DNA of 32,000 bases from Candidatus Saccharimonadota bacterium (lineage in GTDB: Bacteria > Patescibacteriota > Gracilibacteria > UBA1369 > 2-02-FULL-48-14). Positions 6,771-9,050 of this stretch are shown here, in pieces. The position numbers and the translations under genes are program-made. Position 1 is the stretch's first letter. Each line of letters begins with the position of its first letter. The notes under the pieces are model-generated. The model did no database searches and was not told where the DNA came from. It worked only from the letters and a program-made list of their open reading frames with translations. Location: NCBI GenBank assembly GCA_965230905.1, contig OZ246396.1, positions 1,170,001-1,202,000 on the forward strand. The letters run 5' to 3'.

Positions 6771-8363
6771 CTAGGAAAGCTTTTTTGTCATGTAGGTTCC
6801 TTCCAATTCGTAGCCCCATTTGCGGTAGTAATTTCGGGTGCCCACGCCGGCGATGATGGCGACTTTTTTGAAGCCGGCCGCGCGAGAAATTTCTTCGGCT
6901 TTTTCGATCATGCGGCGGCCGAGGCCTCCGTGCTGTGAGGCGGTGTCGTCACTGCGGCCTACCCGTACTTGGGCGCCGTAGGTATGTACTTCACGCACCA
7001 GCGCAGCGCCTTCGAGTTCTTTGATGAAGTGAGGTTTGCCTTGGAGAGAGTAGGAAGAAAAACGGAGACGTAGTAGCGAGCAGAGTTTGTCGCGCACGGG
7101 GTCATTGAAGCTGATGAAAAATTCTTTTCCTTCGGAGGCTTCGTACTCAAAAACGCGGAGTTCGGTGTCGTCGGGGTCGAAGACGTCGCCTTTGATTTCG
7201 CGGCAGCGAATACAGTGGCAGACAATACCCTCTTTCGCCATTTTTGCCTGGAGGAGTTGGCGCATGTTGGTCATTTGGCTGCCTTCCAAAATGGATTCAC
7301 CGGGGATGTCGCGGAAGAGTCGTTCGATGCGCACGTATTCGGGGATGTGGCGCTTCATTTCGATCAAAATATCCATCAGGACTTCGTCGGAATACGCTTC
7401 GTAACGGCCCTCTTTCCACCATTGTTCCAGCTCGGCGTAAGGCGTCACCACGCAAGGGTAAATCTTGAGTTGGTCGGGTTTGAAGTTTGGATTTTCAAAA
7501 AATTCTCGCACCATCCATTTGTCTTTTTCCGGTGTGCTGCCTGGCAAATTGGGCATGAGGTGGGTGGCGATTTTTAGCCCGGCATCCTTCATCAGGCGAA
7601 TGGCTCGAATGGTGTCTTCAATCACTTCCCCACGTTTGTTGAGTTCCAAAATGGCGTTGTCGATGTGTTGCACGCCGATTTGCACTTTGGTGCAACCGAG
7701 CTTCAGCATGTGTTTGATTTCCTCTTCGGTTATGTGATCAGGCCGGGTTTCGAGGCTGAGCCCGATTATTCGGTGCTTGGCGGATTCATTGATTTCTTGT
7801 GCTTCTTTGAGTGACTTGCCTTGTTTCTCATTGCAGGCGTTGAAGAGTGCACGTACGAAGTCGGTTTGGTAACGACGGTTGTAGGCAGAAAAAGTTCCAC
7901 CGAGCACGATCATTTCAATTTTGTCGGTTTCATGACCTTGCTTAGTTAGACTATCGAGGCGGGTTTTAACTTGGTCGCGAGGATGAAAATCGTCGAGCAC
8001 GGCGCGCATGGCTCCGGGTTCATTGGAAAGATAGGATTTTGGCATACCTGGCTCGGTGGGACAGAACACGCACTTACCGGGACACGGGTACGGTTTGGTG
8101 AGTACGGTGATGACTGTGACCCCGGAGAGCGTGCGTACTTTTCGTTTGCGAAGCAGACGTTGCAGCGTGGGATCACCTTTCCAACCTTCGGCGAGCATGC
8201 TTTCGTAGGCTTTTTGCAGTTTAAAATTGCTCAATAAATCGATCTCGTGCTCCTTGGCAAAGAGTTTTTTGAGCTTGTGCAGATCCTCCTCACTTTGAAT
8301 ATTCAAGGTTGAGGCTTGTTGAATCAGTGCTTTTTGTATATCTTCAGAGCTGAGTATCTTCAT
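6771..8363 (-). CDS. elp3: Elp3-family radical-SAM / GNAT acetyltransferase (tRNA uridine-34 cm5 modification enzyme homologue)
   Basis: Radical-SAM Cys triad [10 protein letters not shown], followed by [23 protein letters not shown]. C-terminal GNAT block [52 protein letters not shown], near-colinear with the eukaryotic Elp3 C-terminus as I recall it. The track start at 8378 is GTG; I prefer the ATG at 8363 ([10 protein letters not shown]...). Confidence 0.9.
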   Translation of the reverse strand: [530 protein letters not shown]

Positions 8364-8372
8364 ATTGAGTAC

Positions 8373-9050
8373 ATGCACTCTAAAAGAATCCAGAAAAAGG
8401 TCAAGGATGATTACAATCAGATTGCGGAGGAGTTTTCGGAGACCCGGCAGTTCCCCTGGAAGGACTTTGAGTGTTTTAAGGCTTATTACCGTGCGAATTT
8501 TAAGGTTTTGGATCTGGGTTGTGGCAATGGTAGGCTCCTCACTTTTCTAAAAAAAGAGGGGTATAAAAGCTATTTGGGAATCGATCAATCGGTGGAATTA
8601 TTGAAACAGGCCAAAAAAGCTCACCCAAAAGAACAGTTTATTGAGGCCGATATGAGCGAGCCGTTTCCCCTAAAAGAAAAAGTGGATGCGATTTTTGCCA
8701 TCGCCTCTTTTCATCACCTTCCCCACAAAGATCAACTGAAGGCGCTCAAGCAGTGGAAGAAAGTTTTAAGGCCGGGCGGATATTTGTTTATGACCAATTG
8801 GAATTTGCACCAGCGTTCGTTTTGGCCGCTGCTCGCACGCAGTTTTATGTTTCCTACTTTTGGACTCCGGGGCGTTTTGGTACCTTGGCAAAAAAAAGTG
8901 CAGCGTTATTATTTTGCTTTCACCAGGCGACGTTTGGCGCGTCTATTAAAACAAGCTGGCTTCACCGTGCTGCGAAATGAATATGTGAAGGATGGAGAAT
9001 CTGCTACGATTTTCTCCGGTAAAAATATTCTTAGCATTGCGCGGCTATGA
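8373..9050 (+). CDS. Trm9/ALKBH8-like class I SAM-dependent methyltransferase
   Basis: DYNQIAEEFSETRQFPW lies directly N-terminal of SAM motif I VLDLGCGNGR. Then AIFAIASFHHL, LRPGGYLFMTNW, VPWQKKVQRYYFAF, in the same block order as yeast Trm9 as I recall it. The track start at 8316 is TTG; I prefer the ATG at 8373 (MHSKRIQKK...). The TGA stop overlaps the next ATG. Confidence 0.75.
   Translation: MHSKRIQKKVKDDYNQIAEEFSETRQFPWKDFECFKAYYRANFKVLDLGCGNGRLLTFLKKEGYKSYLGIDQSVELLKQAKKAHPKEQFIEADMSEPFPLKEKVDAIFAIASFHHLPHKDQLKALKQWKKVLRPGGYLFMTNWNLHQRSFWPLLARSFMFPTFGLRGVLVPWQKKVQRYYFAFTRRRLARLLKQAGFTVLRNEYVKDGESATIFSGKNILSIARL

Follow-up and report, generated by a model that had tools for sequence, protein, structure and literature searches.

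In a 32,000-nucleotide (nt) stretch of contig OZ246396.1 (GenBank assembly GCA_965230905.1, a Gracilibacteria genome; positions 1,170,001 to 1,202,000 of the forward strand), referred to here as the window, two genes stand head to head: one for Elp3, a radical S-adenosylmethionine (SAM) and KAT/GNAT enzyme predicted to be a tRNA U34 carboxymethyl synthase, and one for a Trm9-like class I SAM-dependent methyltransferase. We propose, with a probability of roughly 70%, that this divergent pair encodes a two-step pathway of the archaeal/eukaryotic type for modification of the tRNA wobble uridine, in which 5-carboxymethyluridine (cm5U34) would be converted to its methyl ester, mcm5U34. An earlier note, made from the sequence alone, had presented the pair as such a module in a bacterium. 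That reading is supported, but the pair is not peculiar to this genome, since it spans the bacteria of the candidate phyla radiation (CPR) and is also present in Dehalococcoides mccartyi. Bacteria thus appear to have in this pair a way of making mcm5U that has not been described. What is new is the very large phylogenetic setting of a known two-enzyme system, not the chemistry.

The divergent gene pair and its Elp3

The open reading frames (ORFs) of Elp3 and of the methyltransferase are both real and intact. In the ORF listing, the minus-strand frame (6771..8378) contains, at 8363, an ATG from which a protein of 530 amino acids (aa) starting with MKILSS is read (6771..8363), and the plus-strand frame (8316..9050) has an ATG at 8373 that gives a protein of 225 aa starting with MHSKRIQ (8373..9050). 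Independent gene prediction in the public record of the source contig yields both proteins at the same lengths (530 and 225 aa), and the corresponding NCBI records are named Elp3 (MEK9160316.1) and "methyltransferase domain-containing protein" (MEK9160315.1). The distance given in the earlier note is confirmed, with exactly 9 nt (8364..8372) between the divergent start codons, and every Elp3 and methyltransferase motif quoted there is present in the sequence. Because the spacer is only 9 nt long, both promoters must fall within the partner gene. A sigma-70-like site lies on the minus strand at 8404..8377 (TTGACC, 16 nt, TAGAGT), such sites being no more frequent than in shuffled sequence, and over positions 6500-10200 promoters and terminators were counted as often as expected from shuffling. 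The transcripts might be leaderless or nearly so.

Judged by its sequence, the protein on the minus strand is an Elp3 of full length with all of the cofactor motifs. It matched the NCBIfam model TIGR01211 with 558.4 bits (cut-off, 350) across model positions 4-522 of 522, as well as the Pfam models Radical_SAM (PF04055, 4e-20) and Radical_SAM_C (PF16199, 6e-20), so that the proposed Elp3 identity held up in the hidden Markov model (HMM) check. Its closest PDB entries were the Elp3 proteins of M. infernus (6IAZ; 1e-127, 430 bits), D. mccartyi (1e-115, 390 bits), and yeast (3e-100, 340 bits). The radical-SAM cysteine motif occupies residues 93-102 (8058..8087, minus strand); there, CPGKCVFC (residues 94-101) aligns with PCPGKCIYCP of the D. 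mccartyi enzyme (DmcElp3) and with CPhGKCIFCP of the M. infernus enzyme (MinElp3). It is followed by the blocks EPGAMRA at residue 115, GHETDKIE at residue 143, and GGTF at residue 155. The linker cysteine cluster CHCIRCRE (residues 382-389; 7197..7220, minus strand) aligns with CRCIRCRE of both MinElp3 and DmcElp3, and this linker motif is described as Zn binding and conserved among bacterial and archaeal Elp3 proteins (PMC6367351). In the KAT domain, the acetyl-CoA motif QHGGLGRRM (residues 477-485; 6909..6935, minus strand) aligns with QHmGyGrmL of MinElp3 and QHrGLGRKL of DmcElp3, and the alignment extends to the Elp3 C terminus; the Pfam Acetyltransf models taken alone gave no match at E<0.01 on this protein.

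Upstream of the region that aligns with DmcElp3, the protein has an N-terminal extension (residues 1-78; 8130..8363, minus strand) with a basic RKRKVRT stretch. Residues 1-75 contain 14 Lys/Arg, and the alignment with DmcElp3 begins at residue 73 of the query. An extended basic N terminus of this kind is typical of archaeal Elp3, where it has been reported to be important for tRNA binding, and is short in DmcElp3 (PMC6367351, PMC7663514).

Relationship of the methyltransferase to Trm9

The plus-strand protein matched the Pfam models Methyltransf_11 (3e-21) and Methyltransf_25, and the blocks read along it are DYNQIAEEFSETRQFPW, VLDLGCGNGR, AIASFHHL, LRPGGYLF, and VPWQKKVQRYYFAF. The second of these is SAM-binding motif I (residues 45-54; 8505..8534, plus strand), whose G-C-G-N-G-R columns are invariant in alignment A1. 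Ahead of it lies a Trm9-type N-terminal helix motif, Y14-x2-IA-x2-FS-x-TR25-x2-PW29 (8412..8459, plus strand). HMMs built from the terminal segments of fungal Trm9, without the SAM-binding core, matched the window protein with an E value of 3e-5 for the N-terminal segment, which covers this motif, and 0.012 for the C-terminal segment; across the loci collected below, 31 passed 1e-3 with the N-terminal model and 35 with the C-terminal model.

We compared the methyltransferase with the PDB in both search directions. With the single sequence as the query, the top match was Trm9 of Y. lipolytica (5CM2_Z, 45 bits), in an alignment that starts at the TR..PW element near the N terminus and ends at the VPW...RYY element near the C terminus. 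With a profile of 19 family members, Trm9 scored 75.6 bits (4.5e-20) and the next entries at most 63.7 bits; furthermore, Trm9 alone aligned end to end, and the others did so over the Rossmann core only. Conversely, when 13 fungal Trm9 proteins were combined into a profile, the best non-Trm9 entry in the PDB reached 40.2 bits, compared with 77.5 bits for the window protein and 43.5-116 bits (median, 92.8) for 81 CPR methyltransferases. A direct comparison of the family profile with the fungal Trm9 profile in hhalign gave an E value of 3e-32 over 191 columns. The AlphaFold 2 (AF2) model of the methyltransferase, with a pLDDT of 94, has a Rossmann-type strand order. The Foldseek comparison of this model with the PDB did not set Trm9 apart from other class I methyltransferases by E value, although Trm9 holds the best target TM-score (0.78), the lowest root mean square deviation (3.0 Å), and the highest identity (24%). 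By the sequence and profile comparisons, whichever way the search was run, Trm9 is the nearest of the solved class I methyltransferases, and the likeness to Trm9 claimed at the outset is upheld.

The same holds for the residues of the active site. Eight residues of yeast Trm9 (R29, D72, H116, W145, W168, R241, Y243, and N271) are known whose substitution by alanine inactivates Trm9-Trm112 and gives zymocin resistance (PMC4678810), and in the joint alignment the window protein keeps all eight, as R25, D71, H115, W143, W172, R178, Y180, and N218. Among the 81 family members, the equivalents of these residues are kept in 81, 81, 78, 81, 72, 75, 56, and 74 proteins, respectively. D71, the SAM-binding acidic residue, and R25 are therefore universal in the family. 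H114-H115 (8712..8717, plus strand) correspond to H115/H116 of yeast Trm9, which position the carboxylate (PMC4678810), and are kept in 71/81 and 78/81 members. The putative substrate pocket (8799..8912, plus strand) comprises W143, Q147, W172 (in VPW), R178, and Y180 (in RYY), equivalent to W145, Q149, W168, R241, and Y243, with Q149 retained in 46/81. Finally, N218 (9024..9026, plus strand) is the counterpart of N271, proposed to recognize uracil O2/N3, and is invariant in alignment A1.

Distribution of the pair and of an adjacent glycosyltransferase

A scan of one genome per species of GTDB r232, queried with the family alignment, yielded 80 loci, all of them CPR/Patescibacteria by title (some automatically labeled TPA bin titles being untrustworthy). 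They include Peregrinibacteria, Gracilibacteria, Kuenen-, Falkow-, Nealson-, Komeili-, Kerfeld-, Magasanik-, Buchanan-, and Campbellbacteria, Paceibacterota, and Minisyncoccales. By tblastn, Elp3 was found in the flank of 68 of the 80 loci, divergent from the methyltransferase in 67 and codirectional with it in 1; the aligned 5' ends of 60 of the 67 divergent pairs are at most 305 nt apart, often fewer than 30 nt. In four loci the upstream DNA is too short for a judgment, although one of these four has an Elp3 N terminus at the contig edge, and eight informative loci lack an adjacent Elp3, so that the pair is retained in 89% of the informative loci. These results indicate that the pairing is not a local accident and bear out the expectation that the adjacency would be conserved in relatives. 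No third conserved partner emerged from the loci: apart from Elp3, no neighbor recurs in more than 20 of them (examples are serine hydroxymethyltransferase, phosphomannomutase, a Mur ligase, and a protein of only 85 aa), and none is Trm112-like. Many of the TPA bins with the pair are titled "uncultured Gammaproteobacteria" or "Saccharibacteria" (e.g., L011, L016, L018, L022, and L026); their gene content and similarity suggest that these automatic labels are unreliable.

The pair extends to the Dehalococcoidia, whose gene contexts we looked up with the DmcElp3 sequence as the query. On the closed chromosome of D. mccartyi (CP019867.1; L081:5283-7380), a divergent class I methyltransferase of 224 aa lies 43 nt upstream of Elp3. 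The species from which the model "rare bacterial Elp3" was taken thus carries the same module. The same divergent pair is present in 3 of the 4 other informative Dehalococcoidia loci (L082, L084, and L086), that is, in 4/5 when D. mccartyi is counted. The methyltransferases of these loci share 38% identity with the window protein and score 68-75 bits with the fungal Trm9 profile and 85-99 bits with the CPR profile, and all four retain 8/8 essential Trm9 residues.

The gene order near the Dehalococcoidia pair is itself conserved and includes RuvB, a GNAT gene, and QueH, which also acts on a wobble base. The methyltransferase is closely followed, in the same orientation, by a conserved ORF of 70-75 aa for a four-cysteine zinc ribbon (..CPxC..GPYKCWKCR..), found on the minus strand at L081:4423-4650, L082:4387-4605, L084:2967-3185, and L086:3005-3217. 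We considered this 72-aa protein as a substitute for Trm112 and did not adopt it: it matches no Pfam family above the cut-off, homologues are absent from the CPR loci, and a role as a Trm112-like partner would be pure speculation.

A further gene is associated with the methyltransferase in part of this range. In the window, a WecG/TagA/CpsF-family (GT26) glycosyltransferase (9047..9820, plus strand; Pfam Glyco_tran_WecG, 1.8e-46), whose membership in the module is uncertain, begins within the methyltransferase gene, the stop codon of the latter overlapping the WecG ATG in a 4-nt ATGA (9047-9050). By this overlap, the methyltransferase is translationally coupled to WecG in the lineage of the window. 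WecG lies directly downstream of the methyltransferase in 17/80 loci. In addition, a search of 1.84 billion representative proteins returned 823 family clusters at E<=1e-30, and among the best 150 of these 50%-identity clusters at least 6 are in-frame methyltransferase-WecG fusions of 469-542 aa (P0368, P0414, P0416, P0422, P0439, and P0452). Two of these fusions were confirmed on their short contigs (L087:167-1576 and L088:176-1738), and at another locus (L009:1664-3145) a methyltransferase-WecG fusion still has Elp3 divergent upstream. The WecG link is confined to genomes of the Peregrinibacteria/Gracilibacteria type, and the Dehalococcoidia have no adjacent WecG. A different domain combination is seen in P0473 (366 aa), in which a Trm9-like methyltransferase domain is followed by a SET domain (Pfam PF00856, 5.5e-13).

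Predicted pathway, alternatives, and genomic setting

In the pathway that we propose, the stand-alone Elp3 would bind tRNA with the help of its basic N-terminal extension, as orthology suggests, and would combine acetyl-CoA from its KAT domain with a SAM-derived 5'-deoxyadenosyl radical formed at the [4Fe-4S] cluster to place a carboxymethyl group on C5 of U34, giving cm5U34. The Trm9-like enzyme would then use SAM to methyl-esterify the carboxylate, giving mcm5U34, a step to which active-site conservation and gene linkage both point. The pathway would apparently run without the other Elongator subunits, and the Trm112 activator was not detected nearby. The head-to-head starts, 9 nt apart, could permit co-regulation via an overlapping bidirectional control region. 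We infer the products, the set of tRNAs targeted, the independence from Trm112, and the co-regulation alike, and the functional coupling of the methyltransferase to Elp3 is seen as genomic coupling only. For the individual steps there are precedents: archaeal Elp3 alone forms cm5U in vitro, with tRNA-dependent acetyl-CoA hydrolysis and cm5U34 formation demonstrated for the M. infernus enzyme (PMC7663514, PMC13315578), and Trm9 methylates cm5U to mcm5U (PMC4678810).

The same two catalytic proteins are found in the eukaryotic system, which consists of Elongator, with its radical-SAM and KAT domains in Elp3, and of Trm9-Trm112 or ALKBH8-TRMT112; the window methyltransferase shares with eukaryotic Trm9 the order of its blocks in addition to the eight essential residues. 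In contrast to the eukaryotic system, Elp1, Elp2, Elp4-6, the Kti factors, and Trm112 were not detectable in the DNA examined here, the bacterial genes are adjacent and divergent, and the product is a predicted one. Unlike ALKBH8, the window methyltransferase has no AlkB or RRM domain. With the archaeal stand-alone Elp3 proteins, the window Elp3 shares the extended basic N terminus, and that of M. infernus is its best PDB match. Well known in eukaryotes, the pathway has been predicted or in part demonstrated for some archaea. Clustering of the Elp3 and Trm9 genes was already pointed out for Sulfolobus solfataricus in 2008 (PMC2584109, PMC5372719), and in H. volcanii (HVO_2888 / HVO_1032 and Trm112), as in eukaryotes, Trm9 works with Trm112, as part of a Trm112 network (PMC6144793). 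Here, in contrast, the host is bacterial and Trm112 was not seen in the DNA examined; moreover, the reported distribution of archaeal Trm9 is limited (Sulfolobales and Halobacteriales), whereas the bacterial pair is broad across the CPR. DmcElp3 (PDB 5L7J) is likewise a bacterial stand-alone Elp3 with a divergent Trm9-like neighbor, but it has 459 aa and lacks the ~70-aa N-terminal extension of the window Elp3 (PMC6367351).

Two bacterial systems are related to the pair by purpose or by chemistry. MnmE/MnmG (with MnmC) act on the same target, C5 of the wobble uridine in tRNAs reading NNA/NNG, and serve the same biological purpose; they form, however, an unrelated GTPase/FAD/folate system that leads to cmnm5, nm5, or mnm5 groups, whereas the Elp3 pair would lead by radical-SAM/acetyl-CoA chemistry to cm5 and mcm5. 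The CmoA/CmoB/CmoM system of Gammaproteobacteria (cmo5U to mcmo5U) likewise ends in the methyl esterification of a carboxylate on the U34 C5 side chain by a class I SAM-dependent enzyme, and the CmoM structures 4HTF and 8JOZ are in the Foldseek list. The partner of the window methyltransferase, however, is Elp3 and not CmoA/CmoB, and the CmoM model (NCBIfam NF008264) gave it 24.6 bits against a cut-off of 366. MnmE, MnmG, and MnmA were absent from the 10 kb past each window end, which says little about a 1.3-Mb genome.

Textbooks and recent reviews hold that bacteria use MnmE/MnmG for C5 of the wobble uridine, regard bacterial Elp3 as an oddity of Dehalococcoides, and deny bacteria any homologues of the methyltransferases that partner Trm112 (PMC7663514, PMC5372719). 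A 2020 review restricts bacterial Elp3 to Dehalococcoides (PMC7663514), and a 2026 paper mentions Elp3 in "numerous bacteria" (PMC13315578). In the searchable literature, we found no description of a bacterial Elp3-Trm9 pair, of a bacterial Trm9, or of Elp3/Elongator in CPR taxa, nothing relevant on Dehalococcoides together with MnmE/MnmG, and no mention of the methyltransferase neighbor in D. mccartyi, whose Elp3 is treated there as an isolated one, the original structure paper (PMC5018218) lying outside that search. The suggestion that the pair had not been described is thus borne out for bacteria in this literature but does not hold in general, given the archaeal cluster in S. solfataricus (PMC2584109).

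Several observations weigh against the mcm5U pathway. First, the closeness of the methyltransferase to Trm9 was gauged within the PDB only; the 1.35 Mb of loci contain no other class I methyltransferases that could serve as outgroups. In the Foldseek comparison, 5CM2_Z ranks only 19th by E value among near-equal class I methyltransferases. Next, the equivalent of Y243 is kept in just 56/81 family members, and in 8 loci with sufficient flank the adjacent Elp3 is missing. No Trm112 (Pfam Trm112p) was found among the window ORFs, the called genes in the 10 kb past each window end, or the 81 loci, a search that left aside the remaining ~1.25 Mb of the genome. Furthermore, xcm5U34 in Dehalococcoides is considered in a review to lack direct evidence, and the activity of DmcElp3 to be weak (PMC7663514). 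Lastly, the coupling and fusion to WecG are not explained by a tRNA-modifying role.

These points leave room for other readings. The one that survives best, improbable in our view, is that the pair does modify U34 of tRNA but that its end product is not mcm5U, owing to a different C5 group, to methylation of another atom, or to further processing of the intermediate. Bacterial xcm5U has never been measured (PMC7663514), the lack of Trm112 in the DNA examined and the active-site drift at the Y243 and Q149 equivalents would fit such a product, and the NCBI name for bacterial Elp3, "carboxymethylaminomethyl modification," shows that annotators are unsure of it. Against this, Elp3 is reported to share its cofactor and tunnel architecture, and cm5U as its product, across all domains of life (PMC13315578), the window protein has its 430-bit match to the biochemically characterized M. 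infernus enzyme, and the carboxylate-positioning residues R29/H116 are kept in 81/81 and 78/81 members of the methyltransferase family.

Slightly less probable still is a role of the methyltransferase in the cell envelope, where it would act with WecG/TagA on a glycopolymer precursor, for instance by methyl-esterifying a uronic-acid carboxylate (ManNAcA), its adjacency to Elp3 being incidental. The overlap of the methyltransferase stop with the WecG start, the 17/80 loci with WecG downstream, and the in-frame fusions (in at least six 50%-identity clusters, at L009, and on two short contigs) would all be expected of such a partnership, and 4 of the 8 loci without an adjacent Elp3 retain WecG. 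The link to Elp3, however, holds in 67/80 loci over many CPR lineages as well as in Dehalococcoidia, conservation extends to the residues proposed to read or stack on uracil (the equivalents of N271, H115, W145, and W168), and the fused gene at L009 still has its divergent Elp3. We keep the tRNA modification pathway at its stated probability because the WecG link is restricted to a lineage, because the Elp3 link is not, and because the uracil-recognition residues are conserved.

It is very unlikely that the methyltransferase belongs with the generic class I enzymes, such as UbiE, CmoM, or others that act on small molecules, and resembles Trm9 in the shared Rossmann core only. Such an identity would agree with the public annotation of the family as "methyltransferase domain-containing protein" or UbiE, with the similar E values of many class I methyltransferases in Foldseek, and with Pfam and NCBIfam matches that are either generic (Methyltransf_11/25) or below threshold. 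None of the curated bacterial cut-offs is reached, however: the DVU_1556 family (NF045667) gave 69.1 bits against 155 and UbiE/MenG (TIGR01934) 52 against 158.35, and BioC, like CmoM, was far under its threshold. Segments beyond the Rossmann core match Trm9 by themselves, the full-length PDB alignment is obtained with Trm9 only, the reciprocal profile scores exceed those of every other solved methyltransferase, and Trm9 is best in Foldseek TM-score, deviation, and identity; one family member is named TRM9 in its JGI entry (P0088). The last alternative, that archaeal or eukaryotic DNA was misbinned or misassembled into a bacterial metagenome-assembled genome (MAG), could appeal to an Elp3 slightly closer to the archaeal (430 bits) than to the Dehalococcoides protein (390 bits), but it is effectively refuted by the genomic context and was rejected: the genes sit on a scaffold of 1,307,106 bp that belongs to a "Patescibacteria group bacterium" MAG, GC content is even throughout the window, the neighbors are bacterial housekeeping genes (RecG, GatB, signal peptidase I, Fmt, SSB, RibE/RibH, PGK, RuvX, L9, SecG, and IleRS), and the pair occurs in 67 independent bacterial genomes and on the closed D. 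mccartyi chromosome.

If the mcm5U pathway is real, a large share of bacterial diversity may use an Elongator-type pathway, which would contradict current reviews. A wider form of this idea, possible but doubtful, is that the whole CPR superphylum and the Dehalococcoidia decode with archaeal/eukaryotic-type xcm5U, for which two proteins would suffice, the Trm9 acting independently of Trm112 and the pair taking the place of MnmE/MnmG, with coupling or fusion to GT26 in Peregrinibacteria/Gracilibacteria; the fusion could then indicate a further wobble-base derivative or a second substrate. Whether any bacterium makes mcm5U is directly testable, as D. mccartyi is culturable and both proteins are small and stand alone. 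The pair also offers a natural Trm9 that is possibly Trm112 independent and an Elp3 with a full N terminus for mechanistic work, and it is relevant to the question of how the pathway arose in evolution and to sensitivity toward anticodon nucleases that recognize mcm5s2U.

Beyond the pair and WecG, the window contains no tRNA genes and includes several other features. Directly downstream of Elp3, a 1137-aa ORF (3303-6716, minus strand), which the public record also calls as a gene, has hydrophobic Gly/Ala-rich stretches and long charged regions and has no Pfam or NCBIfam match. Between IleRS and SecG, a 121-aa ORF (26478-26843, minus strand) matches Pfam Phage_holin_4_2 (1.2e-22), with no other phage genes nearby. 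At the window edge (31404-32000, minus strand) lies an archaeal-type phosphoenolpyruvate carboxylase (Pfam PEPcase_2), which continues in L090:11354-12874 and is another archaeal-flavored gene of this CPR genome.

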